Positions 3,259 through 28,200 of a stretch of 29,359 bases of DNA are shown here, piece by piece; positions within the stretch are counted from its first letter, which is position 1, and each line of letters starts with the position of its first letter. Made by a program: the position numbers and the translations under genes. Location of the stretch: positions 1 to 29,359 of the forward strand of contig JABCOX020000072.1 in NCBI GenBank assembly GCA_013333395.2, read 5' to 3'. The notes beneath the pieces were generated by a model. The model was not told where the DNA came from and did not search any database. It saw only the letters and a program-made list of their open reading frames with translations. Origin of the DNA: Clostridiales bacterium (lineage in GTDB: Bacteria; Bacillota; Clostridia; TANB77; CAG-508).

Positions 3259-3935
3259 AATTTTTTGGTTTATATTTACTGATAATTTTAGCGATTGACT
3301 CATAATCATTCTCAACAATATCTAAGAAAGCAAACAAAATTCCGTGGATCAAACTGAGTTCCAGAATATTTTTTTAGTTCATCCACAACTTTTTCAAGAG
3401 GAATCACATCCCTATAGCTTCTTCGAGAAGTCATTGCATCAAAAGCATCAACAATTGTGCAGATTCTAGCCAAATAAGGAATATCATGTCCACGCAGTCT
3501 ATTAGGATAACCACTGCCATCAAATTTTTCATGATGATGTAAAATAATAGGCAGACAATCATAGAAAAAATCAGAATTTCCGAGAATTTGAACCCCTACA
3601 ATAGGATGCATTTTTATTTGAGAATATTCTTCATCAGTCAACTTAGATTCTTTAAGTAAAATTGAATCAGGAATACCAATCTTTCCAATATCATGGAATA
3701 ATCCACCAATTTTAAGAGTAATTAAGTCTTTTTTAGGTAGGGCTAATTTTTTACCAAGTAAAACTGAATAAGCAGAAACTCGATCAGAATGACCTCTAGT
3801 ATAAGGATCTTTAGCTTCAACGGTTTGTCTAAGAATTTCAATTGTATCAATATAGTGTTTTTCTATGTCACGAGTGATATCAATAAAATCATCATTTTTA
3901 TCATAAGTATTTGAAGAAAAATCATTATTATTCAT
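3257..3935 (-). CDS. Stand-alone HD-GYP domain phosphodiesterase. In-frame stop is at 3312; the likely true C-terminus is in the +1 frame, ending at 3257.
   Basis: KDPYTRGHSDRV, HDIGKIGIPDSIL, HHHEKFDGSGYP, DAFDAMTS.RSYR, GTQFDP. After FDP the +1 frame reads GILFAFLDIVENDYESIAKIISKYKPKN*. Confidence 0.88.
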
Positions 3936-4021
3936 AAAGTCTCCAATCCTTAAATTTGTATCATTATATCACAAAATTAGACTAAAAAGCTAATAAAAAC
4001 AGATAAAATTACAGAAAATAC

Positions 4022-4050
4022 TTGATTAAATTATGTAAATCGATTAAAAT
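4022..4050 (+). promoter_or_regulatory. Sigma-A-like promoter, cassette 1
   Basis: TTGATT-17 bp-TAAAAT; same architecture in all three cassettes. Confidence 0.7.
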
Positions 4051-4072
4051 AAATTTGTAATTGACTTTTAAA

Positions 4073-4136
4073 AAGCTTTCACGTAACTCATTAACTTGGA
4101 GGCTTGGCCTCCGCAGCAACCTGCAAAGGAGGTAAT
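4073..4136 (+). promoter_or_regulatory. Structured 5' leader (putative translational switch), cassette 1
   Basis: AAGCTTTCA can pair with TGGAGGCTT. GGAGGC pairs with GCCTCC. CCTCCGCAG pairs with CTGC(AAA)GGAGG, which contains the RBS. Confidence 0.6.
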
Positions 4137-4472
4137 ATGCAATCAGAAAATAAGCACAAAATTGAAGGAGTGCTGTTTTCAAGTAGCGAATTGAAAAATA
4201 ACGAGACGGTATTAACCGTCTTAGAGGAAGCAAGAAAGCTTAGAGAAAGGCCAGAAGTTCTTGCAACTCTCGGATACATTCTTGAAAAAACAAACTCTGC
4301 AAAACATACATGGTTTGTAAACCGTATGGTGACGTTAGAGATTTCAAGGACAACTGAACACAAAGGAATTAGGTTTAGAAGATATTCTGAGAAGTTGTAC
4401 AGTGGCGAGGATCTATATTATATTAGGTCCATCTATAGGAGGAAACGCAATAATTGCAAAGAGGAGTGCTAA
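4137..4472 (+). CDS. Hypothetical 111-aa protein, paralog 1 of a tandem family
   Basis: AAAGGAGG RBS before ATG 4137. Aligns with the next two ORFs (GVxF, ATxxxIxxKT, GxRxxRxSxxLxxGED). Confidence 0.8.
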   Translation: MQSENKHKIEGVLFSSSELKNNETVLTVLEEARKLRERPEVLATLGYILEKTNSAKHTWFVNRMVTLEISRTTEHKGIRFRRYSEKLYSGEDLYYIRSIYRRKRNNCKEEC

Positions 4473-4489
4473 ATAGCGCTCCTCTTTTT
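4458..4489 (+). terminator. Intrinsic terminator, cassette 1
   Basis: AAAGAGGAGTGCT / AGCGCTCCTCTTT hairpin followed by a T run. Confidence 0.85.
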
Positions 4490-4506
4490 ATAATTAATTA
4501 AAGAAC

Positions 4507-4535
4507 TTGCAAAATTTATGTAAAATTGATAAAAT
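4507..4535 (+). promoter_or_regulatory. Sigma-A-like promoter, cassette 2
   Basis: TTGCAA-17 bp-TAAAAT. Confidence 0.7.
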
Positions 4536-4559
4536 AAATCGGTAATCAATTTTTTTGTA

Positions 4560-4623
4560 GAGCTTTCATGTAACTCGTTAAGTTGGAGGCTTGGCCTCCA
4601 AAGCAACCTGCAAAGGAGGAAAA
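4560..4623 (+). promoter_or_regulatory. Structured 5' leader (putative translational switch), cassette 2
   Basis: GAGCTTTCA pairs with TGGAGGCTT; TTGGAGGC pairs with GCCTCCAA; CCTCC can alternatively pair with the RBS GGAGG. Confidence 0.6.
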
Positions 4624-4962
4624 ATGCAGAAAAGAGAACTCAGCAAAGTTGAAGGAGTACTATTTGCAAGCTATGAGCTTGAAAATGACGACTTCAAGAA
4701 GAAGGTGTTGAAAGAGGCCGAGAGTCTGAAAGAGAGACCGGAAGGTTTAGCAACTAGAGGATACATATTTCAGAAGACCAAAAGTGGACTTCATACGAGA
4801 TTTGTAGCAAGACTGGAAAGACTAGAACTTGGACGCTCAATAGATTTTGCTGGAGTAAGATATAAGAGAGTATCTGAAAGTCTTTTTGTAGGAGAGGACA
4901 TTTACATGTTACACTCCAGATACAGATGCAAAAAGATGGACGTATGGGAAGAGGGCACTTAA
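4624..4962 (+). CDS. Hypothetical 112-aa protein, paralog 2
   Basis: AAAGGAGG RBS before ATG 4624. KVEGVLF, LKERPEGLATRGYI and GEDIY match paralog 1. Confidence 0.8.
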   Translation: MQKRELSKVEGVLFASYELENDDFKKKVLKEAESLKERPEGLATRGYIFQKTKSGLHTRFVARLERLELGRSIDFAGVRYKRVSESLFVGEDIYMLHSRYRCKKMDVWEEGT

Positions 4963-4978
4963 TAGTGCTCTCTTTTTT
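4949..4978 (+). terminator. Intrinsic terminator, cassette 2
   Basis: AAGAGGGCACT-TAAT-AGTGCTCTCTT followed by a T run. Confidence 0.85.
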
Positions 4979-4988
4979 ATATAAAAGC

Positions 4989-5016
4989 TTGAAAAATTAT
5001 GTAAATAAGTTAAAAT
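4989..5016 (+). promoter_or_regulatory. Sigma-A-like promoter, cassette 3
   Basis: TTGAAA-16 bp-TAAAAT with the same TTATGTAAA spacer motif. Confidence 0.65.
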
Positions 5017-5038
5017 AAACTAGTAAGCTATTTAGAAA

Positions 5039-5101
5039 AGCTTTCAAGGGAACTTGGAGGCTGCATAAGCCTCCTTAACAAATGTTGCATGGAGGTTCAA
5101 T
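5039..5101 (+). promoter_or_regulatory. Structured 5' leader (putative translational switch), cassette 3
   Basis: AGCTTTCAAG-GGAA-CTTGGAGGCT 10-bp stem with a GNRA loop. Alternative GGAGGCT / AGCCTCC stem. CCTCC can pair with the RBS GGAGG at 5091-5095. Confidence 0.6.
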
Positions 5102-5413
5102 ATGCAATATAAAATCATAAATGGAGTAATCTTCTCAGAATTTGAAATAAATGATAAAGAGAAGATTAAAAAAGTCTTGAAAGATGTTCAGGTCTTAAAT
5201 GACCGAACAAAGACTTTTGCAACGTTAAAGGGAATTTTGGAAAAGACAAGGCTAGATCATGATTCGGCCTTTATTCAACGCCTGGTCAGACTAGATATTT
5301 CCAGAACCACAGATTATCTTGGGGTAAGGTATACCAGACACTCCAAGCTCTTGTATAGTGGAGAAGATTTACATTATCTTCGAAAACTATACTTAGAGGG
5401 TAAACTGGTATAA
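5102..5413 (+). CDS. Hypothetical 103-aa protein, paralog 3
   Basis: GGAGG RBS. INGVIFS, ATLKGILEKT, ISRTT and LYSGEDL are shared with paralog 1. Confidence 0.8.
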   Translation: MQYKIINGVIFSEFEINDKEKIKKVLKDVQVLNDRTKTFATLKGILEKTRLDHDSAFIQRLVRLDISRTTDYLGVRYTRHSKLLYSGEDLHYLRKLYLEGKLV

Positions 5414-5414
5414 A

Positions 5415-5443
5415 AAAAGGGAGCACTGAATAGTGCTCTTTTT
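5415..5443 (+). terminator. Intrinsic terminator, cassette 3
   Basis: GGGAGCACT-GAAT-AGTGCTCTT followed by a T run. Confidence 0.85.
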
Positions 5444-5456
5444 CAGTTAAATACCA

Positions 5457-5485
5457 TTGAAATAGATTAATAAAAAATATATAAT
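5457..5485 (+). promoter_or_regulatory. Sigma-A promoter of the acyl-CoA synthetase gene
   Basis: TTGAAA-17 bp-TATAAT. Confidence 0.75.
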
Positions 5486-5512
5486 GAATTCAAATGAAAA
5501 GGGGTGTAATAA

Positions 5513-7242
5513 ATGGCAAAAATAGAAGAGAAAAGAAAATTAAATAATTTTAGAGAATTAATTGATTATACAGAAGAAACATATGGAGACAATATTTGCT
5601 ATAAATACAAGAAAGACATCAAAGAAAAACCTGCAACAATCATAGAAACTAGTTTTAAAACAGTTGCAACTAAAGTTAGAGGATTAGCAACATTTATATT
5701 AAATTATGAAAAAGAAATGAAAAGAATTGTCGTAATCGGCGATAATAGCGAAAAATGGGTGGAAGGATATTTAGGAGTAGCAACATCAGGAAAAATTGTT
5801 GCTCCGATGGATAAATTACTACCAGAAAAAGAAATAGAGTCTTTATTAAAAAGAAGTGATATAGATGCTGTTATAACAGACAAAAACCATTTAGAAATAT
5901 TTACAAGATTAAGAGACAAAAAAGACAATAAATTAGAAACAATAATTTGTATGGAAAAAGTAAATATTAAAGACATAATTGACATGGAAACAGCAATTGA
6001 AGAAGGCCTTAAATTACTTGAAATGGCGATAAAAAATACAATGAAGTTGAAATAAAAGATGATGAAATGAATATAATGTTATTTACATCAGGAACAACTG
6101 ATAAATCAAAAATTGTAATGCTAACACAAGCAGGAATAATGTCAAATGTATACAGTATTCAATTCCATGTAGAAATAACAACAAAAGACACATTACTATC
6201 GTTTTTACCAATACACCACACATTTGAAAACACAATTACAATTTTATTATCAATGTATAAAGGCGGAACAGTAGCATTCTGTGATGGGTTAAGATATATA
6301 GCAGATAACTTGAAAGAGTACAAAATAACAATATTTGTCGCAGTTCCACTGGTAATGGAAACAATGTACAAAAAGATTCAAAAAGGACTAGCTGAAAAAG
6401 GAAAAGACAAGTTAATAGCTAAAATGATAAAAATATCAAACGCACTATTAAAATTACACATTGACTTAAGAAAAGTAATATTTAAACCAATACATGCAGT
6501 ATTTGGAGGGCATTTAAAGAAAGTTCTATACGGATCAGCAAGTATTTCCAAAGATACAATAACTGCTTATAATAATTGGGGAATTAATTTAATACAAGGA
6601 TATGGATTAACAGAAACATCTCCAGTATTAACAGCAGAAAGTGAAACAAGACATAAGATAGGATCTGCCGGATTCTGCATATTGAATCAAGAATTGAAAA
6701 TAGAAAATCCAGATAAAGATGGAATCGGTGAAATCGTAGCAAAAGGAAAAAATATCATGTTAGGATATTATAATGATGAAGAAAAAACAAAAGAAGCATT
6801 CACAGAAGATGGATTTTTCAAAACAGGGGACTATGGATACATAGACAAAGATGGATTTTTATTTATAACAGGTAGAAAAAAAGACATAATTGTACTAAAA
6901 AATGGAAAAAATGTATATCCACAAGAGCTAGAATTTTTAATAACAAAATTAGATTATGTATTAGAATGTATCGTATTTCCAAGGAACAAAGATAAAACAG
7001 ACACAGTAATTCAAGCAAAAATCGTATATGATAAAGATAGAATAAAACAAATATATGGAGAAAAAACCGAAGAAGAATATAAAAAAGATATATGGAAAGA
7101 TATTAAAGAAATCAATAAAGATTTAGTAACATACAAACATATCAAAGAAATAGAAATAACAGACATCCCTATGGAAAAAACAACAACACAAAAAATTAAA
7201 AGATATGTAGAAATAGAAAAAGAAAAAGAAAATAAAAAATAA
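5513..7242 (+). pseudogene. Long-chain fatty acid-CoA ligase (AMP-binding), split by a single-base frameshift near 6021-6023
   Basis: 5513..6055 is the N-terminal part. 6067..7242 has LFTSGTT, QGYGLTET, FKTGD and GRKKDIIVLKNGKNVYPQELE. Adding one A gives LLENGDKKYNEVEIKDDEMNIMLFTSGTT. May be a sequencing error rather than a true pseudogene. Confidence 0.8.
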
Positions 7243-7318: not shown

Positions 7319-7394
7319 GGTGCAACAGGAGGGATTCGAACCCCCGACCTCTCGGTTCGTAGCCGAGTACTCTATCCAGCTAAGCTACTGTTGC
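7318..7394 (-). tRNA. tRNA-Arg (ACG)
   Basis: Reverse complement GCAACAG...CTCGG-CTACGAA-CCGAG...GGTTCGAATCC...CTGTTGC-ACCA folds as a cloverleaf with encoded CCA. Upstream TTGTTT-17-TATAAT on the minus strand. Confidence 0.96.
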
Positions 7395-13630: not shown

Positions 13631-16600
13631 ATGAAAAAATTAAAAGTTTTTATTATTTTAGCTGGAATCTTATTAGCAGGAATTTTAATGATGTCAAGTA
13701 AAATTTATGCTGTAGATTCTTCAGCAAATCCAATGTATTTAGGATTATATAACAATAGTAATGCTAGAAAAACAGGCTTTTATGATTACTTAGATGCATC
13801 TAAAGCACGTAGACCAGCAATAAAAATTGTCAAATATGAAAATGCACAAGGATTAGGAAATGTAGATTATCTTACACAAATATATTGTTTAAGACATGGA
13901 ATAGGATTTGGATCAGAAGGTTCAACAGCAGCCATAGTTCCATATACACAACATTTTGATATGAAACAACCAGAAACAATTGGTAACGAATACAAAGAAG
14001 CCATTGGAATAACTGCAGGAGTAACACCAAATTATAATAAAATAATGTGGATATTAAACATGGTAGCAAATCCAAATAATCAAGAATCAATTATTGCATT
14101 ATTTGAAGCAGCAGGAATCAATATTGATGATTTCAAAGGTGATAAAGCTCAAATGACTCAAGAAGAAATGATAGATATAATAGAGGCTGCACAACAAATG
14201 GCAATCTGGTATTATACAAACCCAACAGGTGATTATCATCCATCAGGAACAAATGAATCATTAAGAGTAGGATTAACAAATCAAAATAATTCAAAATCAC
14301 CAGTGGTATCAAAATACTACAATGACGAAATAAATTATCCATTAAATGAATTATATAGATATTTAATAACAAAATCTGAAGAAGCAGTTAATAGAGGATA
14401 TACATATCAAACAGCAGCAACAACAATTAACTTTAATAAGGATAATGCAACATATGTTGAAGAAGGAGCGAATTATAAATTTGGACCATATAATTTAACA
14501 TATACAAATAACCCAGGGATTAATGTTAATATTGAAGCAGATGTACAATTAGGAAATAATATAAGAATTGTAAATGCACAAGGTGTTGAATATCCAGGAA
14601 ATACAGTATCAGAAAAGATATTAAATGCAAATGGTACAGACTTTTATGCTGTAGTACCAAAATCAACAAATGTAAAAACATTTAAAATTGCAGTTTCAGC
14701 CAATTATCAAACAACAGATATTACATATTGGTCAACATCTGCAAATATTGCACAAAGAAATCAACCAGTAGTAATTGTACAAAAAGCACCAAAAGCTTTT
14801 AATGACGAAAAAATAATTCAAGTTAGAGAAATTCCAAAAGAATTTGACTTAGCATTAAGAAAATTCATTACAGGAATTAGAAGTGCAACAGGAGTTGCTA
14901 AACAAGTAGAAAGTAGAGAGCCAGTAATAACACAACAAGCATTAGAAGATTTAGCAACTGGACGTACAGAATTTAAAACAACAGCAGTAAAAACACATAG
15001 AAAAGATGCTTTAACAGTTGAAACAGGTGACATCGTAACATATACAATTAGAGTATACAACGAAGGAGATGTTGATGGATATGTTGATCAAATAACAGAT
15101 TATCTACCAGCAGGATTAGAGCTAACAGAAAATAGTAGAATAAATCAAGCCAATAGATGGGCAAAAGATGGAAAAGTTTTAAGATCTGAATTACACACAA
15201 AAGACTTACTAAAAGCTTTTGATAAAAATACAAAAACATTAAGCTATGTAGATTATCAAGTTGAATGTACAGTGTTAGACACAACAAACTTAACAACAAG
15301 AGACTTAACAAACGTAGCAGAAATAACAGCACAAAGACCAGTTGATAATCAACAAATAAGAGATAGAGACTCAGTACCAAATAATCTAACAAGAGATCAA
15401 ATCACAAATTATAACCCAGGAACATCTGAAAAAGGTAAAGGTTATGAAGATGATGATGATTATGAGCCATTAAAAACATCAAACAAAGAGTTCGACTTAG
15501 CATTAAGAAAATTCATAACAGGAATCAGAACATCTACAGGAGTTGCTAAACAAATAGGAAGTAGAGAACCAGTAATAACAAAACAAGCATTAGAAGATTT
15601 AGCAACAGGACGTACAGAATTCAAAACAACAGCAGTAAAAACACATACAAAAAATCCTTTACAAGTTGAAAAAGGAGATATCGTAACATATACAATTAGA
15701 GTATATAACGAAGGTGAAGTAGATGGATATGTTAGAGAAATAGCAGATTATCTACCAGCAGGATTAGAATTAACAGAAAACAGTAGAATAAATCAAGCAA
15801 ATGGATGGAACAAAGATGGTAAAACATTAAAGTCACAATTCCATGCAAAAAATATAATTAAAGCTTTTGATAAAAATACAAAAACATTAAGCTATGTAGA
15901 TTTCCAAGCTGAATGTACAGTATTAGATACAACAAATTTAACAACAAGAGACTTAACAAACGTATCAGAAATAACATCACAAGATCCAAAAGAAGGAGTT
16001 AATGTAAGGGATAGAGATTCAATTCCAAGCAATTTAAGAAAAGAACAAATCTCAAACTATAACCCAGGAACATCTGAAAGAGGAAAAGGTTATGAAGATG
16101 ATGATGATTATGAACCATTAAAGCCAGTAGAAAAAGAATTCGACTTAGCATTAAGAAAATTCATAACATCAGTAAATGGAACAGAAGTAACAAGTAGAAT
16201 TCCAGATGTAGATGTAACACCATTAGTAAATAAAACAGATACAACAGCAATATACAGACATTCAAAAGAACCAGTAAAAATTAAGATATCAGATATCGTA
16301 ACATATACAATTAGAGTATATAACGAAGGAGATATAGATGGTTATGCAGATGAAATAGTGGATCACTTACCAGAATACTTGGAATATATTGATAACGATT
16401 TCAATAAACAATACGGATGGCAATTAGATCCATCAGATAATACAGGAAGAACAATAAAAACAAACTATTTATCTGATAGAACAAATAAAGCTAATATAAT
16501 TAAAAAATTCGATGGAAAAACATTGGATTATAAAGAATTAAAAATTCAAACAAGAATTAAATCAGGAGTAAAACCAACTAAATATCTAACAGATATTGCA

Positions 16601-18043
16601 GAAATCACAGAGTCACACAACGAATTCAAAATTCCTGATAGAGATAATTACAAAAAAGTAGTATTACCAAAAACAAGTGATGAATTCTCAGAATATAAAG
16701 GACATAACTCAAACAAAAAAGACTTGAGCGACAAACGTTATTACTATAAAGGACAAGAAGATGATGATGATTTTGAAAAAGTAGTAGTAGAAGGAGAATT
16801 CGATTTAGCACTAAGAAAATTCATTACACAAGTAAATGAAGAAGCAGTAACAAACAGAATTCCACAAGTAGATACATCAAAATTCGGAACCATTGGAGCA
16901 GATGGTAAACCAGTAACTACAATGACATATAACCACACAAAAGAACCAATATTAGTTAATACAACTGATATCGTAACATATACAATTAGAGTATATAACG
17001 AAGGTGAAGTAAATGGATATGCAACAGAAGTTAAGGATGACCTTCCAGAAGGATTAGAATTCTTACCAGACAATGCAACAAATAAAGAATACAGATGGCA
17101 ACTATTAGACAAAGATGGAAAAGTTACAACAAATGTAAAAGAAGCAGTATCAATAATCACAGATTATTTATCAAAAGAACAAGAAAAAACATCAGGATCA
17201 AATCTATTAAAAGCATATGACAAAACAACAATGAAAACACCTGATTACAAAGATGTAAAAATAGCATTTAGAGTAACAGAACCACAAACATCTGATAGAA
17301 TATTAATAAATAAAGCTCAAATCAGCAAACATCATGATGAATTTGGAAAAGAAGTAAAAGATAGAGATTCAACACCAAACAAATGGAATGAAGGTGAAGA
17401 TGATCAAGATATTGAAAAAGTACGTGTAAGATACTTTGACTTATCATTAAGAAAATGGGTTACACAAGTAATCGTAATCGAAGATGGAAAACAAAAAGTA
17501 AAAGACACAGGTCATTATGCAGAACAAGATCCAGAACCAGTAGTAAAAGTTGAAGTTAATAAGAAGAGATTAAAAAATACAGTAGTAAAATTCAGATATT
17601 CAATCAGAGTTAAAAACGAAGGTGAAATCGAAGGATATGCAAAAGAAATTTCAGACTACATACCAAGTGGTTTAAAATTCAATAAAGCAGATAACCCAGA
17701 CTGGGTAGAAAAAGATGGTAAAATAGTAACAACTAAACTAAAAGACACACTATTAAAACCAGGAGAAACTGCTGAAGTAACAGTATTATTAACATGGATC
17801 AATGGTGAAGAAAACATGAAAGTAATGACAAACAATGCAGAAATCAGCGAAGATTACAATAAGTATAAAACACCTGATAGAGATTCAAAGCCAAACAACA
17901 AGAAAAAAGGTGAAGATGATCAAGATGATGCACCAGTAACAGTCACAACAGTAAGTGGTTCAACACCAGTATATATTGGAATTGCTGTAACAGGAATTGC
18001 AATAATAGCAATCGGCGGAATATTAGTAAAAAGATATATTTAA
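13631..18043 (+). CDS. Surface adhesin: signal peptide, Cys-Gln thioester domain, five DUF11-like Ig repeats, C-terminal membrane anchor
   Basis: MKKLK plus hydrophobic signal. IYCL and AQQMAIWYY resemble the TED YC...QxAIW motifs. Repeats FDL(A/S)LRK...TYTIRVYNEG...DYLP.GL...N.AEI. C-terminal hydrophobic helix followed by KR. Confidence 0.85.
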   Translation: MKKLKVFIILAGILLAGILMMSSKIYAVDSSANPMYLGLYNNSNARKTGFYDYLDASKARRPAIKIVKYENAQGLGNVDYLTQIYCLRHGIGFGSEGSTAAIVPYTQHFDMKQPETIGNEYKEAIGITAGVTPNYNKIMWILNMVANPNNQESIIALFEAAGINIDDFKGDKAQMTQEEMIDIIEAAQQMAIWYYTNPTGDYHPSGTNESLRVGLTNQNNSKSPVVSKYYNDEINYPLNELYRYLITKSEEAVNRGYTYQTAATTINFNKDNATYVEEGANYKFGPYNLTYTNNPGINVNIEADVQLGNNIRIVNAQGVEYPGNTVSEKILNANGTDFYAVVPKSTNVKTFKIAVSANYQTTDITYWSTSANIAQRNQPVVIVQKAPKAFNDEKIIQVREIPKEFDLALRKFITGIRSATGVAKQVESREPVITQQALEDLATGRTEFKTTAVKTHRKDALTVETGDIVTYTIRVYNEGDVDGYVDQITDYLPAGLELTENSRINQANRWAKDGKVLRSELHTKDLLKAFDKNTKTLSYVDYQVECTVLDTTNLTTRDLTNVAEITAQRPVDNQQIRDRDSVPNNLTRDQITNYNPGTSEKGKGYEDDDDYEPLKTSNKEFDLALRKFITGIRTSTGVAKQIGSREPVITKQALEDLATGRTEFKTTAVKTHTKNPLQVEKGDIVTYTIRVYNEGEVDGYVREIADYLPAGLELTENSRINQANGWNKDGKTLKSQFHAKNIIKAFDKNTKTLSYVDFQAECTVLDTTNLTTRDLTNVSEITSQDPKEGVNVRDRDSIPSNLRKEQISNYNPGTSERGKGYEDDDDYEPLKPVEKEFDLALRKFITSVNGTEVTSRIPDVDVTPLVNKTDTTAIYRHSKEPVKIKISDIVTYTIRVYNEGDIDGYADEIVDHLPEYLEYIDNDFNKQYGWQLDPSDNTGRTIKTNYLSDRTNKANIIKKFDGKTLDYKELKIQTRIKSGVKPTKYLTDIAEITESHNEFKIPDRDNYKKVVLPKTSDEFSEYKGHNSNKKDLSDKRYYYKGQEDDDDFEKVVVEGEFDLALRKFITQVNEEAVTNRIPQVDTSKFGTIGADGKPVTTMTYNHTKEPILVNTTDIVTYTIRVYNEGEVNGYATEVKDDLPEGLEFLPDNATNKEYRWQLLDKDGKVTTNVKEAVSIITDYLSKEQEKTSGSNLLKAYDKTTMKTPDYKDVKIAFRVTEPQTSDRILINKAQISKHHDEFGKEVKDRDSTPNKWNEGEDDQDIEKVRVRYFDLSLRKWVTQVIVIEDGKQKVKDTGHYAEQDPEPVVKVEVNKKRLKNTVVKFRYSIRVKNEGEIEGYAKEISDYIPSGLKFNKADNPDWVEKDGKIVTTKLKDTLLKPGETAEVTVLLTWINGEENMKVMTNNAEISEDYNKYKTPDRDSKPNNKKKGEDDQDDAPVTVTTVSGSTPVYIGIAVTGIAIIAIGGILVKRYI
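14843..17940 (+). repeat. Five tandem ~212-220 aa domain repeats
   Basis: FDL starts at 14843, 15491, 16139, 16799 and 17435 (spacings 648, 648, 660, 636 nt). Copies 1 and 2 share long identical DNA stretches. Confidence 0.9.
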
Positions 18044-19280: not shown

Positions 19281-22200
19281 ATGTTGAAAATAAGCAGTAA
19301 AATGAAGAAAATACTTACAGCAATAATAAGCTTAATCGCATTAGTTGGAATTGGAATAGCAACAAACATGGTTGTTACAAACAATAATATACAATTAAAT
19401 AGCAAAGCGCATAAAGCACCTTCAATTGAAGAAAGAAGAGCAATCAATGGCACAGTAAATGTAACGTTTGATGCATACTTCTTAAACAATTCAGAGAGAA
19501 CAAATGAAGTTCTATTAGGGCCAATTGTAGGACCAATTGTAAGGACAATTCCGACAAAAGACATTTATATGGAATTAAGTGTAGTAGGAGATGGTTACCT
19601 AAAAGATGGAAAAATCCTACTTCAACCAACAAATGGAAAGATTTCAACAACATTAGTTACTGACAATGTAATTAATGGAACATATGTAGGAACACCTGGT
19701 GAAATAAAATTAAAAAATGTTCAAAGTGGTACAACAAGAATAATCAAAGGAGTTGTGAATCCTTTAATATTAGGAAAAGATTATTTTTTACGAAATGATA
19801 ATAAAATAATATTTAAAGGAACATATGTATCTGCAGATGGACAAGAAACTCCTCTTGAAAAAGAAGTTCGATATACTGTAGAAAGTATGTACGAATATGT
19901 TAAAGCATATTCATACAATGATTATAGAAGTGATAGAGAAATACCAAAAGAATATTATTCAAAAGACACTAAACCATATGCCTATTTTAGAATATTCAAT
20001 CGTGGAGAACAAATAAATGAGTCATATGGCCGTACATATAACAATTATGTGGCAATAACAGCAAATACTTTAAAAGATTTGGAATATAGAGCAATAGTTC
20101 CTGAGTTTAATGGGTATAAAGCAGAATCAGTGGAAGTTACAGTAAACTATAAATTGAACAATGAAAAAGTAACAACAACATATAATAAAGATACACGTGA
20201 ATTATTGATAAAGTATAAAGAAATTGGTAATAACCAAAATACTATAATACATGTGACTTATCCAAAAGAATCAGGAGATTCTAAAGCTAGTGAGGAAGTA
20301 GAATTAATAGGAACTTTAAGGTTGTCATCAGACAATAATCCTAGATACACAAATCCACTAGAAGACACTGTGACATCAATAGACAAAAGAAAAATTGAAT
20401 ATTATGAAAGGCAAGAATTAAGATATTCTCCAAATTATATAGATATATTAAAAACGCCAACAGCAGATAATCCTTTGGATAGATATGACGGTAACACAAC
20501 ATTAGCCAAAACAGAAGAATATTCAGTTGCATGGAGCCCATATAGTGAAAAAATAACAACATACGAAATTGAATTAACTGAATATAAGAGAAATTACGGC
20601 GATACTTTAGGTGCTCCAGAAATCAAAATAAAAGATGTTGTTGTAGACAAAGGAATAAAATTTACAATAAATCCTAATAGTTTAACAGAAAACTCAACAA
20701 TTAAAATATATGATGATGAAACGAATGAATTAATTAGAGAATATAATAGAACAGAAATTTTAGAAAATAATAGCAAAGACTATAAATATAATCGTCCTAT
20801 AAAGCATGTTAAAATAGTATTAAATAATATAAAAATACACAATAGAAGTGATAATTACTTCATACATTATAAAGAAATTAACGATGAAGAATTAATAAAA
20901 TTAATAAATAAAGAAGCATTTGAAAAACTTGGGTATATAAAATCAGGATTGACTCAAAAAATAGGAACAACAAATGTATATGCAGAAGATAGCAATCCAT
21001 ATAGAAAAACAAGTGAGCCAACAGTAAATATAGGGATGTATTACCATAATAAGATTAATGAACAAATTGCGTATAATGGAATCAAACAAGAAAAAGATAA
21101 TGATTTTATATATAATATGGTAATGTATTTTACAAAAGGTACAAAAGGGATTAGATTGGTAGATGATAGTGGATTCTTTTTGTTAAAAAGTGATAGAAAT
21201 TTTGAAAATGGAATCAACGCTTCTGAATATATGAAGTACAAAGGAATTTATTTCGATTCAAGACAAAATTTAATAGATAACTTTAATTTAAAAATATATG
21301 ATAATGATACAAACGAGTTATTAGCAACCTTTACTAAAGCGGACATTGGAAAATACAATAAAGAAGAAACAGCATTTATTTACCCAGAAAAAGTAAAACA
21401 TATAAGAATAGATTCTAATGATAATATTTCAATGTCACACATAATTAATATTGATAATAATAAATTAGTACAAAATGTAGATTTGAATACATATATTGAT
21501 GAAATTAAGTACTTCGGAATAAAGTCAAAATTTGCAAGAATTGTTGAAGAAGGACAAGAATATACTAAGTTTAAAGATATATCAACAACAATAGATGCAT
21601 ATATACAAAAATCAAGAATTGAAGCACATGTTGATAAACCAGTAAATACTTATCAAAAACAAAAAGATATAACAAATACGATTTATTTAAGAAATGTGGC
21701 AAAAAATAATAAAGAATCTTATGAACTAACATTCAATGGGTGGAAAGATTCAATAATACTAATTGAATATCCAGAAGAAATTAAAAAAGTTGAAATTAAT
21801 AAAATAACAGCAAGTGATGAAAATATTAAAATATTAGGATATGATAAATTTGAATTTGAGGGAAAACAATATTTAAAAATTTATATAAAATCAAATGTTG
21901 AGTACCAAGGGAAAAGTATAAATATTAATGAAAATTTAACAGCAGATCCCTTAGCAAAGTCAAAAGATGCACCAGCCAAAATATATTACTATAATGCTTA
22001 TCCAGTAGAGCGTTCACAATATGAAACAGAAACAGCAGATAAATTTGATATAAATAACAATGGAAGAACAGATGACATCATTGGATTAGCAAGTTTTCAA
22101 ATAGGTATAGTTAGTCCAGATACATTAGTAGTAACACAAGAGATAACTGGTTATAATACTAAGAATGAAACAACATATGCTCCAGGAACTGGTATAATTG

Positions 22201-25200
22201 AAAGCAATGGTTCAGGGACAGCAACAGTAAAAATACAGTTAGCAAATTATTGGACACCAACAGTATCAAATGTTAAGTTAATAGGAAAAATACCATTTAG
22301 AAATAATATAACACCATTAAGTAAACAAACATTAAAATCAACTTTCTCAACAACAATGACTGAGGATGGAATTCAACTACCAGAAGAGTTAAAAAGATTT
22401 GCAAAAGTATACTATTCAGAATTAGAAGATCCTGCAATGAATGAGGCAAGTGCTTGGAAAGAAAAGGCACAAGTAACAAATTGGAATAATATCAAATCAT
22501 TCTACATTGACTTAGGTGGTAAAATACTAAGCCCAACAGAAAAACAAACAATAACATATAATGTAAATGTTCCATTAAACACACCAGTAAATGAAAAAAC
22601 ATATTCAACAGTAGCAGCAAGTTTTGATTTGAACACAGAAAGAGATGGTAATTTATCTTCAACAGCTGAATCAAACAAGGTCGGTATTCAATTATTAAAA
22701 CGATATAATCTAAATATATCATCTTTAGTTAAAGGAAGAATAAATCCTATTGCAGATTCAGTTTACAGTGTTGAAAATAATGAAGATGATGAAGATTTAG
22801 CAATATCAAAAACGGTAGTAATAGATCAATCAGGAAATGCAATTGTAAAAGATTTAAGAGTAAATGAAGAATATACTTTAACAGAAAAATCAATCGATTC
22901 AAATTATGAAGAAAGAAATATAAAAATTAAGTTCAAATTAGTTGAACAAAATGGAAGACTAGAGTTACAAGTAACTGAAGGAAATGAATATGTAAAAGAA
23001 AAATCAGAAGTTCAACCAACAGAAAGAACAAATGCAACAGCAAATATTAAGTTTGAATATTTGAAAAAATATAAAATAACTATAAATAAGAAATCAGAAA
23101 AAACAAAAGAAAATTTAAAATACGTAGTTTATAAATTATCAGGAAATGATGACAGTGCAACTCAACTAGGAAGTACTGATGAAAATGGAAATTTAACATT
23201 TAGTAGTTTGAAGACAAATGTTATATACACATTAACTGAAACATTTGCACCAAAACATTATATTAATGCTCCTATAACATTTAGAGCAACAGAGACTAAT
23301 GGCGTTCCAAATATTGAATTATTATCTGGACATTCAGAAAGTCTAACAATAAGCGAAACTAATGAAAAACAAAATCAAGCAAATATTAGTATATTTGACG
23401 AAATGGTAAAAACATATACATTAAAAGTTGTAAAATATGAAAAAGGAAATTTAAATAAGAAATTAAAAAATGCACAATTTTTAATAAAAGGTGACGGGAT
23501 ACCAAATGGTAAAGTTATCGAAACAGATGAAAATGGAGAAGCAACACTTACAGATTTATATGAATATAAAGAAGGCCAATCATACAAAGGTAAATATACT
23601 ATTGAAGAAATAGTTGCACCAGAAGGATATAAAGGTAAATACAAAGTAGATGTATTAGTAAAAAGAGATGAAGCTCAAATAGCAAGAGTACATGCAACAA
23701 CAACAGAGTTAGATATTAAAAATGCAGAAAGTGATCACCCAACAGTGTATTTCTTCGTACCAAATGAACCATTATTTAAAATAATTAAAAAGGATGCTAA
23801 AACACAAGAACTATTACCAAATACTAAATTTGCAATAGTTAAAGTAGATGAATCAGGAAGAGAGTCTGAAGCATTAGATATAAATGATAATCCAGTAGGA
23901 ACTCAAGAAGAGATTAATGGTAAAACATACCGCACAATATTAACAGATGAAAAAGGAGAATATACAGCAGGATTAAAAGCAGGTAGATATAAATTTATAG
24001 AACTACAGGCTTCAAATGATAAATATGATTTACCAGAAAAAGAAGAAGATAGAACATATACAGTAAACGTTGGAGAAGCAACTAAGGCTAAATATGTATT
24101 GAAAGAAAATACAAATATAAGTAGAGCCATCGATAATAGAGATTTTTATGAAAGTACTGGAGTAAAAGTAACATATGTCAATGGGCAAAGTGTTACATAC
24201 AAAATAACTGATGAAAATGGTAAAAAGTATTTAAATGTTTATGACAAAGAATTTAATGTAACTAAAAAAATAGAACTAAAAAATATGAGAGAAATTAATC
24301 AAAGTACTGAAGTAAATATCGGAAAAGATGGCTCAATATATGTATATTCTGAAAAAATAGGAACAACAAAATTTGATTCGGAAGGTAACTTCTTATATAG
24401 AAGTAACGATGGATATTTTGGAGGAATTTACAATAATGGTATAAGGGGACCTTCAAATCAATTCGGAAGTTTTTTAATAGATAATGATAATAAAATTTTA
24501 GCAGGTAGTGATTTGAGTGAAATAACGGTATATAGTAATAAAACTAGTGAAGGATTACTACATCATTATAATTATACCTTTAACGGAGAAAAGAGAATAG
24601 GAAAACCAAGCTTTTTAGATGGATTCTTAGAATTAGTTTATGGTACAAATAATGGAGTTGTTAATATTTATAATAATGATTTATCAATTAAAAATACTTT
24701 TAATGTTGCTATAAGAAGTAATGGAAATATTAGGACATTATCAAACATAGCAAAATTATATGAAGACACTGAAGGAAATATATATGTAGAAAATACAGAT
24801 GAAAATAAAATTGATGTATATAATCGTGAAGGAACTCTATTAAAGCAAATCAACAAGTTAGGAAATGAATTTACAGTATTACCAGATGGAAAAATATATT
24901 TTATTGATTTTAAACATGAAGAAAAAAAGCAAATTAATGTTAAATTAATATTAACAGAAAATAATGGTAAAAAAATTTATGAAAAAGATTTAGAAAACAT
25001 TAAATATGATTATAGAGAGAACTATTTAGGAATAAACATTAATGCAGATGGAACAATAGATTATACAAAAAGTACAAACAACAATATATATGATGAACGA
25101 ATAACTAATAGACTAGACTTAGAAATCGAAACTCCAGCCCAACCTCCAAAATCAGAAATTGTAGTAGAAAATAAATTAAAGAAATTTAAAATAACAACAT

Positions 25201-28200
25201 CAAGCGTTGGTGGTGGAACAATTTCGGGTGTAGGTGAAAATCCATATGAGGAAGTAGAAATATATTCAGATTCAAAGAAAGATATTGTAGTTCAAGCATA
25301 TAGAGGATTTATGATTTCTAAAATAACCATTAATGGAGAAGAATATCCTATTCCAGATCAAGTATTCAATCCAACTAGATCTGAAACAATAGTCCTAGAT
25401 AAATTTACTAATATGACAGAAGACAAACATATCAATGTAGAATTTACAACATTTGCTAAAGGACCAAGAAAGGTAGCAGTAAGAACCTACCATTATCTAA
25501 AAGGTACAACAACAGAAGTAGCACCAACAACTAGAAAGATATATTTACAAAATGAATCATATACAACTGAGCCAAAAATTTTAGAAAAATATGAATTAGA
25601 AAAGAATGAAGATGGTGAATATATAATACCTGATAATGCAACTGGAACTACAAGTGAACCACAAGCAAGTGGTAATTATAACGTAATCTATTACTACGTA
25701 AAGAAAAAAGCAAAAGTAATAACAAAATACATTCTAGAAAAATCAGATGGAAGCACAGAGGAAATAAAACCTAAAGATGAACAAACACTAGAAGTAGATT
25801 CAGAATATAGAACATCTGGAGAAATTAATAATCCAAAATATGAATTAATAAGAATTGATGGAAACGCAAGAGGAACAGTCGAAAGTACAGAAGACATTAA
25901 TGTTACATATGTATATAAATTAAAAGATGCTAAAGTAAATGTAAAATATTTAGATGTAACAGAATCTGAGACAGGAACACCATTATCAAGTAGAGATGGT
26001 ACAACAATTGAAGATAAAGTAATAAATGGACAAGTAGATGAGGCATATAGAACTCAAGAAGCAGAAAACGTTCAACCAAATTACAGTTTAGTTGAGACAC
26101 CAAGAAATGCATCAGGAACAATGACAATAGATCCTATAACAGTAGATTATAAATATAGAAAAGTAGCACCAACTATTAATGATATAAATGTAACAAAAGT
26201 AGGACCAAACAAAATTGTGTCAAAAAATCAATTAAACACATATAATATTACATTTAACGTAGACATATCAAATTATATTGGTTCAGGAAAAGTAAGATTA
26301 ACAGATAAATTACCATATGAAATTCATTATGAAGACACAGACGAATTAGCAAGAGGATTATTCCTAGACGGTGGAATTTATAATAATGAAACAAAAGAAA
26401 TAATATGGGATATTCCAATAACAGATATTAATACATATAAGCAAGCCGATGACAGAAATGAAGATAATGTAGTAATAACTCAAAACGGAAATAGTGCTCA
26501 CATAACAATAAACAAAACAATATCAATTAGATATAAAGATTTACCAAATTACAATCAAGGTGAAGAACCAAAGATTGAAAACAGTATATTTGGAAAAGTA
26601 ATACTAGATAGAAACAATGAACGCGAAGTAAATAGTAAATACAATTCACCAGCAAATTATAATACTGCAATAACTGTTAAAAAGAAATGGAATGATAACA
26701 GCAACTCAGCTGAAAAACGTCCAACATCAATAACTTTTGCATTGTACAAAACAATAAATGGACAAGAAACAAAAGTAAAAGATTATACATTAACAGGTAA
26801 TAAAACAACAAACGATGGCTGGGAAACAAAGATTGAACAATTACCAATCTATGATGGGGTAACTCAAAGTAGAGAAATAGGCCTTGAAAGAGCAGGTGAA
26901 TTAGGTAATAGAATAACATATAGAGTTGAAGAAACTACAAATAATAAATTCTATCAATCAGTAGGAACAACTCCTTCAGAAAATGAATTTTTATTAACAA
27001 ACACATTCACAGTACCAGATGAAAAAATCGAAGTACAAGTAAATAAAGTTTGGGATGACAATTCAAATGCAAATGCTAAGAGACCAACAAGCATTAAATA
27101 TGTATTAAATGGTGGAAAAACACCAGTAGAACAAGTTGTAACAGGAAATAGTACAACAAATGATGGTTGGGGATATAAATTCACTAACCTAGCAAAATAT
27201 GATGATTTAGGAAACGAAATCACATACACAGTATCAGAACAAGAAGCAACAACTGATGGATTAAAATTCTATACAAACAGAGTATCTGGAGAATATAAAG
27301 CAGGCATAACAATCACAAACACATTCACAGTACCAGATAACAAAGTAGAAGTAATAGCAACAAAACATTGGGAAGATGCAAACAATGCCAACGGAAAGAG
27401 ACCATTGAGTATTAAATATGTATTAAATGGCGGAAGAACACCGATAGAGCAAGTAGTAAGTGGAAATAGAACAACTGATGCAGATTGGAGATACACATTT
27501 ACAAATCTTCCAAAATATGATGCACAAGGAAACGAAATATCATATTCAGTAGACGAACAAGAAGTAAATTCAGGAGATTTAAAATTCTATACAAAATCAA
27601 AATTAAAAAATAGAATGATCAATACTTTTACAGTACCTGATGAAAAAATTAATGTCCCAGTAACAAAACATTGGGAAGATGGAAACAATGCAAATGGAAA
27701 AAGACCAACAAGTATCAAATATGTATTAACAGGAAACGGTTTAACAAAAGAGCAAGTGGTAACTGGAAATGCTACAAGTGATGCAGATTGGAACTACACA
27801 TTTACAAATCTTCCAAAATATGATGCGCAAGGAAACGAAATTTCTTACACAGTAGAAGAGCAAGAAGTAAACGCAAACGATTTAAAATTCTATGCAAAAT
27901 CAAAGACAAACTATGATTTAACAAATACATTCAAAGTTCCAAACGAAAAAATTAAAGTATCAGTAACAAAACATTGGGAAGATAATTCAAATGCAAATGG
28001 AAAGAGACCAGCAAGTGTTAAATATGTATTAACAGGAAACGGTTTAACAAAAGAGCAAATAGTAACAGGAAATAGAACAACTGACGATAATTGGTCATAC
28101 ACATTCACAGATTTACCAAAATACAATAGCCAAGGAAATGAAATTGTATATACAGTTGATGAACAAGAAGCAAACAAAGATGGATTGAAGTTCTATCAAA

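Follow-up and report, generated by a model that had tools for sequence, protein, structure and literature searches.

The analyzed DNA, hereafter the window, is a stretch of 29,359 nucleotides from a Clostridiales bacterium (class Clostridia, GTDB order TANB77; contig JABCOX020000072.1). Between a minus-strand HD-domain gene and a split gene for an AMP-binding enzyme, it carries three tandem units. Each unit opens with a sigma-70-type promoter (predicted), followed by a leader of 79–82 nt, an orphan ORF, and a terminator-like hairpin (Table 1). The transcription starts are predictions, placed 7 nt past the -10 box, and GTAA is the predicted 5' start of all three leaders. Averaged over 300 nt, the GC content rises to 0.37–0.40 over the three ORFs, as compared with 0.26–0.33 in the flanking genes.

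Table 1. Features of the three tandem units and of their surroundings in the window.
Feature	Positions	Strand	Remarks
HD-domain gene	3312-3935	-	
Promoter 1 (predicted, sigma-70-type)	4022-4050	+	TTGATT-17-TAAAAT, spacer with TTATGTAAA; promoter scan; predicted start G4057
Leader 1	4057-4136	+	segment 1 4074-4081, decoy segment 2 4097-4104, anti-RBS 4107-4112, RBS 4128-4132
Orphan gene 1	4137-4472	+	111 aa (P0001)
Intrinsic terminator-like hairpin 1	4458-4487	+	terminator scan
Promoter 2 (predicted)	4507-4535	+	TTGCAA-17-TAAAAT; promoter scan; predicted start G4542
Leader 2	4542-4623	+	segments 4561-4568, 4584-4591, 4594-4599, RBS 4615-4619
Orphan gene 2	4624-4962	+	112 aa (P0002), 49% identity to gene 1
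Terminator-like hairpin 2	4950-4979	+	with T run; sequence reading, scan did not flag
Promoter 3 (predicted)	4989-5016	+	TTGAAA-16-TAAAAT; promoter scan; predicted start G5023
Leader 3	5023-5101	+	segments 5039-5046, 5055-5062, 5069-5074, RBS 5091-5095
Orphan gene 3	5102-5413	+	103 aa (P0003), 43% identity to gene 1
Terminator-like hairpin 3	5421-5444		A run 5', T run 3'; scan: minus strand; plus-strand T run from sequence reading
AMP-binding enzyme gene, split	5513-7242		two ORFs, 5513-6055 and 6067-7242
tRNA gene	7321-7394	-	
Repeat protein	13631-18043		1470 aa; ~650-nt repeats
Repeat protein	19281-29357		>3359 aa, 3' end open; 303-nt repeats

The element TTATGTAAA sits in the spacer between the two boxes of each window promoter (4030-4040, 4515-4525, and 4996-5006) and likewise in the promoters of several homolog genes that have other leaders. 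It is possibly an operator or a promoter element common to accessory genes. In the wider leader family described below, TATG(T/A)AA was found in the promoter spacer of 26 of 76 leaders. Hairpin 3 is possibly a bidirectional terminator. The two ORFs of the AMP-binding (acyl-CoA ligase-like) gene match consecutive parts of one Pfam domain, and the split is a frameshift or an assembly error. The two very large repeat proteins are probably surface proteins.

Orphan proteins and their homologs

The three window proteins belong to no family in Pfam, NCBIfam, or PADLOC (0/3 matched in the last) and have no significant PHROG match. Neither a solved relative nor an Atlas look-alike was found for them, and searches of phages, plasmids, and IMG/VR returned no carriers. 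Nine proteins passed an E value of 0.001 among 1.84 billion representatives, eight of them real; P0043, a 1307-aa repeat protein, was rejected as a chance match. Two confident AlphaFold2 models (pLDDT 79.5 and 86.4; the second, for the product of gene 3, with pTM 0.75) show an alpha/beta architecture. Structural comparison of two models gave no clear match, the best Z values being 2.7 and 4.0 (PAS-like, rmsd 3.4, 69 aligned). Foldseek gave no match to the models at E up to 0.001, a result that does not in itself show the fold to be new. The family has invariant G, R, S, and G residues around a C-terminal hairpin, and is rare, with about 5 carriers in 401 genomes across the order.

Distant homologs were found in L093 (hhalign 94%) and L095–L098 as free-standing genes of raised GC. 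Four of these loci share a second leader (L093:1372-1443+, L095:1801-1871-, L096:1804-1876-, and L098:1367-1437+), built of an outer stem, an internal loop, and an inner stem with a bulged A. Four of its 12 pairs are changed on both sides, a score reached by 3 of 500 shuffles, with the structure derived from the same four sequences. The second leader has no Rfam match, and it also precedes an unrelated 109-aa gene in L249. Its presence on both kinds of gene indicates that leaders and genes have been reassorted. Leader model R1 had no match in the window, and model R2 had none in the distant homologs. Adjacency to a tRNA gene, seen at 4/6 loci of the protein homologs, was rejected as a general feature since it held for only 4/30 leader loci.

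Folding of the window leaders

Each leader contains a 5' arm (segment 1), a decoy GGAGG (segment 2), a single anti-RBS CCUCC (segment 3), and the RBS GGAGG (segment 4). The arm pairs with the decoy region, and the anti-RBS can pair with either GGAGG copy. The initial annotation had described these four segments in all three leaders and assigned them two exclusive folds, 1:2+3:4 (OFF) and 2:3 (ON). Rereading the sequence confirmed the coordinates, and recounting gave the same contiguous 1:2 pairs (9, 9, and 10 in copies 1–3), the same 2:3 pairs (7 with one G-U, hence six Watson–Crick, then 8 and 7), and the GGAA loop of copy 3 (5049-5052).

The OFF fold is the minimum free energy (MFE) structure of all three leader stretches, but copy 2 is predicted to prefer 2:3 (P = 0.86) once 15 nt of coding sequence are added. 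The MFE z-scores were -3.7, -1.4, and -3.4; copy 2 on its own is thus not above shuffles. Both helices were stronger than most of those obtained after dinucleotide shuffling of the upstream sequence, with p values for copies 1–3 of 0.011, 0.02, and 0.002 for the 1:2 duplex and 0.06, 0.02, and 0.045 for the 2:3 duplex. An RBS paired with an anti-Shine–Dalgarno (anti-SD) sequence, as in type I toxin mRNAs, was predicted for copies 1 and 3, and not for copy 2. Prefix folding of copies 1 and 3 gave the order 1:2, then 2:3, then 1:2+3:4.

Pairing 2:3 had been expected to release the RBS. It would free the RBS from the anti-RBS, but the release is not full, as a UGCA(U) immediately 5' of the RBS is able to form 4, 5, and 9 bp (copies 1–3) with the AUGCA of the start; in leader 3, positions 5082-5090 have the same option of pairing around the start codon. 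Because this further hairpin can hide the start codon, the window copies reach an ON state that is only partial. The predicted cost of opening the ribosome footprint was 8.3, 9.3, and 10.1 kcal/mol in copies 1–3 with 2:3 formed, and 9.3–14.9 kcal/mol overall, as compared with a median of 5.1 and a maximum of 10.7 kcal/mol for 14 host genes of the window. In silico, deletion of segment 1 lowered the cost by 3.5–5.2 kcal/mol in all three copies, and destruction of segment 2 left copies 1 and 3 off and locked copy 2 off.

Distribution of the leader family

The cassette occupies the same place in eleven metagenome loci, in one to three copies each. Copy number varies from one to three among L008, L009, and L010, and P0004 is a chimera of gene 1 and gene 2; both point to recombination between the tandem units. 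The window and these loci yielded 20 distinct leaders, with the frameshifted L007 excluded, and the leader cores are nearly invariant among them. Within this lineage, 11 leaders of the copy 1/2 type gave no covariation beyond shuffles, which scored as high in 500/500 cases for the OFF fold and 236/500 for the ON fold. Helix 1:2 is lost in L009 (p = 0.80) and weak in L008 (p = 0.23). On close relatives alone, the switch would be unproven.

A covariance model built from the 11 copy 1/2-type leaders matched 8 of 121 related genomes. Seven of the eight matches contain the four segments, each behind a similar promoter and before an unrelated ORF (one of 10 aa). We then searched for the family with a pattern of segments 2, 3, and 4 only, leaving out the segment 1 arm. 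This pattern matched five of five genomes from that set, with up to 8 copies in one, and 109 of the 241 genomes sampled across the order. By hand tally, the 241 genomes gave 181 matches versus about 56 for the reversed control.

The loci studied comprised 30 chosen by the tool and 80 regions picked from the 150 matches listed, with omission of matches already included and of those that looked GC-rich or coding. Among the former, a promoter was present 30–75 nt upstream of 24, 28 had an ORF no shorter than 40 aa, and 24 had a significant arm:decoy duplex, a feature that the pattern did not require. The corresponding counts for 82 hand-picked hits were 61, 76, and 46, and reading of the output showed that many of the segment 1 misses pair 3' of the 12-nt test window. 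The 132 distinct hits were reduced to 99 with promoter and ORF, and to 76 below 80% identity.

In IMG/VR, five of eight hits to a subfamily pattern were true leaders. Four of these viral leaders, examined further, have endolysin, holin, tail, or integrase genes no more than a few kb away, a usual setting for accessory genes. They may belong to prophage accessory genes or to host flanks, an ambiguity that arises because the loci are near contig ends. A strict pattern of the window type gave only 5 chance viral hits, and no true leader was found among 80 examined hits to a CCAUACC pattern. One IMG/VR contig of different composition (L433:601-637+, GC 0.44) has a similar decoy/anti-RBS layout before a 27-aa hydrophobic peptide which looks like a type I toxin.

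Outside the order, a stricter pattern occurred in 14 of 121 class genomes, three of them order genomes already seen. Fourteen other class matches were folded. Only L412 had a promoter-like box and a start codon properly placed, and its MFE structure lacks 1:2. The leader was not found beyond the order among the class genomes searched.

Rfam 15 gave one match at threshold in the window, the tRNA gene. Positions 3900-5550, searched at E up to 5, gave 11 matches, all below threshold, and 20 other leader loci gave two sub-threshold matches only. The leader has no Rfam family at the gathering threshold. We found no description of it in the literature searched, which did not extend to subscription papers and supplementary motif tables. 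As far as searched, the leader family is undescribed.

Covariation of the two exclusive helices

The 76 non-redundant leaders carry the main evidence for the two folds. The three outer pairs of 2:3 hold in 72/76, 71/76, and 59/76 (p = 0.0002 each), in permutation tests that ignore relatedness and make no phylogenetic correction, leader subfamilies being visible. The first is C-G in 35 leaders and U-A in 30; a fourth outer pair holds in 30/76 only. In the OFF helix, the same 3' bases pair in just 9/76 and 19/76. Since they are unpaired in OFF, selection at these positions belongs to the ON fold.

For 1:2, the register was fixed from the pyrimidine core alone, and a unique core was present in 43/76 leaders. 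The inner flank pairs form in 36, 35, and 37 of the 43, and the outer ones in 38, 35, and 26. Five of the six flank positions gave p < 0.03 in the same tests; inner +2 is nearly invariant and uninformative. At inner +1 (36/43, p = 0.0004), G-C occurs 23 times and A-U 11 times; at outer -1 (38/43, p = 0.0002), the pairs are G-C (14), A-U (11), and C-G (11), and outer -2 holds in 35/43. At the position just 5' of the decoy, a base change is matched in both pairing partners (G,C,G in 22/43 and A,U,A in 8/43). Hairpin 1:2 has a median length of 11.5 bp. The arm cores that face the decoy are G-U-rich (UCUUC in 12, CCUUU in 9, and CUUCC in 7 of 43; CCUCC in none), and the decoy is left partly unpaired by the arm in 31/76.

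The 3:4 core is conserved by construction, because it is part of the search pattern, and its outer extension is weak (37/76). Independent support for 3:4 comes from folding with ViennaRNA, which predicted OFF in 58/76 leaders versus 11.4 expected with the arm shuffled.

Both exclusive helices thus covary outside the window's lineage. To our knowledge, natural RNA switches with compensatory changes in both alternative helices are uncommon. A cis-regulatory RNA switch, as initially proposed for the three window copies, is supported by this covariation, by the in silico mutants, and by the lack of an Rfam match. The occurrence of one leader family before many unrelated orphan genes goes beyond that proposal. 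From the sequences, we consider it very probable that the leaders form a two-fold switch.

Repeated DNA that spreads and is self-complementary without any role at the RNA level would also explain up to 8 copies in a genome and the tandem copies of the window. The leaders hold a fixed sense-strand place between promoter and RBS, contain many G-U pairs, and keep their pairing despite divergence, and this explanation has next to no likelihood.

Predicted switching and its possible trigger

The remaining 18/76 leaders were predicted ON at equilibrium. The predicted gap between the two folds has a median of 2.3 kcal/mol (quartiles 0–5.2). Removal of the arm produced 2:3 in 67/76 leaders, and trimming from the 5' end flipped 52 of the 58 OFF leaders, after a median of 19 nt.

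We favor, at a probability of roughly 0.4, an mRNA off-latch on translation that would be released when RNA processing removes the 5' arm. In this model, a strong shared promoter would transcribe unrelated accessory genes, which would stay untranslated until a generic signal acts on the RNA. The arm:decoy hairpin is predicted to form first in transcription, leaving the anti-RBS free to pair with the real RBS (OFF). Cutting or trimming of the A/U-rich 5' part would free the decoy, which would capture the anti-RBS and open the RBS (ON). Release by arm loss is favored because 1:2 must form first, and the three-step relay would transmit a 5'-end event to the RBS. The trigger may be generic, as the leaders have no shared loop sequence and no translated decoy: no conserved loop or tail word was found in the 76 leaders (the most frequent 5-mers, runs of A/U, each occur in no more than 17/76), and a start codon 4–12 nt past the decoy is present in only 10/76. 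No nuclease site was identified. The energy of 8–10 kcal/mol still needed to open the ON fold of the window copies speaks against the latch, as do the 18/76 leaders predicted ON and, in the window's lineage, the lack of covariation and the lost or weak 1:2 helix of L009 and L008.

Another point against it is the behavior of the growing transcript. Before the RBS is made, 2:3 was favored in 64/76 nascent leaders, a preference that a folding timer (or pause sensor) would explain at least as well. Such a device would let the fresh transcript be translated briefly in 2:3 before it relaxes to the stable OFF fold, giving a pulse with a yield set by transcription speed. The OFF state of 58/76 complete leaders, the order of prefix folding in copies 1 and 3, and the G-U-rich or incomplete pairing of the arm with the decoy are consistent with this explanation. 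The Levivirus maturation leader is a precedent (PMC4615214). Against the timer, the 1:2 hairpin, which forms first, would have to melt its outer stem within about 10–20 nt before the RBS appears. We rate it as possible and somewhat doubtful.

The gap between the folds is small, and it varies among paralogs and strains (-2.5 to 7.8 kcal/mol). An untriggered leader would suit these values: its balanced folds would damp translation to a low constant level, so that the cell could tolerate foreign genes despite their strong promoter. One weak anti-RBS hairpin would suffice for this purpose, however, and would make two further covarying helices unnecessary; constant damping therefore appears improbable.

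The relay has the logic of known expression platforms, and the word A/G-C/U-A-A-U/C recurs in the 3–4 loop of 21/76 leaders; these two points speak for a ligand riboswitch, an antisense-RNA target, or a thermometer. Against the first two, the 76 leaders contain no conserved aptamer-like or seed sequence. In the window, where a trans-acting RNA was also sought, no minus-strand promoter pattern lies across the three starts. The number of leaders predicted OFF at 25, 30, 37, 42, and 50 °C was 59, 59, 58, 56, and 53 of 76. The lack of a shared loop sequence and a predicted state that barely moves with temperature argue against a riboswitch or a thermometer, and the genes downstream are unrelated. 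We judge this group of explanations very improbable. As for a leader-peptide attenuator, the short overlapping ORFs of the window are not common to all three copies.

Downstream genes

The 99 downstream ORFs, many represented to about 200 aa only, fall into 72 protein clusters. At E 1e-4, 68 of 71 representatives had no match in Pfam; the exceptions were SPFH, VanW with SH3, and TPM. Two of the 68 Pfam-less proteins matched PHROGs of unknown function, and PADLOC gave one weak match (E 6e-4) in 50 proteins. A terminator-like hairpin lies 3' of 51/78 complete ORFs. A harmful or defensive role of the downstream genes is conjecture.

One conserved gene of 243–259 aa, with host-like GC and no Pfam match, has the leader in eight genomes (L311, L313, L315, L316, L318, L319, L321, and L324), an indication that a gene inherited vertically has retained the switch as well. 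An SPFH/Band 7 gene has it in four genomes (L303, L306, L317, and L333).

These genes bear on the possibility that a host- or phage-encoded protein turns the leader on by binding its arm or hairpin 1:2, in which case latent defense or toxic genes would be expressed only upon infection or stress. The orphan nature of the genes and the four viral loci near endolysin, holin, tail, or integrase genes are in line with it. It also has a precedent in phage Orf1, which raises abiD1 translation 13- to 27-fold (PMC2661086). The leaders, on the other hand, offer no common single-stranded sequence to read, the PADLOC and PHROG matches are few, and some downstream genes (SPFH, VanW, and TPM) look ordinary. 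Self-regulation by the encoded protein was rejected as a general trigger, as 99 leaders precede 72 protein clusters and the distant homologs of the window proteins carry other leaders. Overall, we regard a binding protein as unlikely, and a latch released at the 5' arm stays our preferred explanation, ahead of the timer, the binding protein, and constant damping.

Discussion

The switch has no sensor domain, yet it is found ahead of genes for at least 72 unrelated protein clusters, of which nearly all lack a known family. If it is a true latch, it would be one way for bacteria to carry orphan genes at little cost. In this uncultured lineage, the leader would then flag candidate genes for defense or stress. 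At about 80 nt, the switch is compact and easily tested with reporters. A far-reaching form of this idea, which we put forward as speculative, is an order-wide, aptamer-free latch on newly acquired orphan genes of bacteria and prophages. Dozens of uncharacterized stress or anti-phage proteins would then form a hidden regulon, turned on by a single generic signal (an RNase or phage factor that acts at the 5' arm), and the leader would be a tag by which they can be found.

The relay of 1:2+3:4 versus 2:3, in which an anti-anti-SD sequence controls the anti-SD, is established in translational riboswitch platforms and attenuators. Unlike these, the leaders show no aptamer, leader peptide, Rfam match, or functional coherence downstream. 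Among type I toxin systems, tisB and zorO have mRNAs processed at the 5' end. The window products differ from type I toxins, usually short hydrophobic peptides, in being soluble-looking proteins of 103–112 aa, and a search of the window found no antitoxin RNA.

In Helicobacter pylori aapA3 and in hok, the primary mRNA is translationally inert until its long-range anti-SD is removed by processing of the 3' end, and the antitoxin is an antisense RNA (PMC6733600). The leaders resemble these mRNAs in that a CU-rich anti-SD is predicted to mask the RBS, that a hairpin formed early would guide folding to the inert state, and that activation, in our model, would follow removal of an RNA end. The leader relay differs in being local, lying at the 5' end, using a decoy RBS, and preceding unrelated genes.

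In Lactococcus abiD1, weak A/U-rich stem-loops are bound by phage Orf1, and the system is cold-responsive (PMC2661086). Shared with abiD1 are an accessory gene that is poorly translated and activation through the leader at the level of translation (both predictions in our case). The leaders differ in their small predicted response to temperature, and no downstream protein matched a known Abi family.

The 5' UTR of the Levivirus (MS2) maturation gene forms a transient hairpin that sequesters the anti-SD, so that the RBS is free before the stable inhibitory cloverleaf is made (PMC4615214). The leaders likewise contain a predicted transient hairpin that sequesters the anti-SD and frees the RBS ahead of an inhibitory fold. 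MS2 uses the arrangement for one gene of an RNA phage, whereas here it is compacted into a leader of about 70–90 nt, precedes many chromosomal or prophage genes, and includes an upstream arm that opposes the permissive hairpin.
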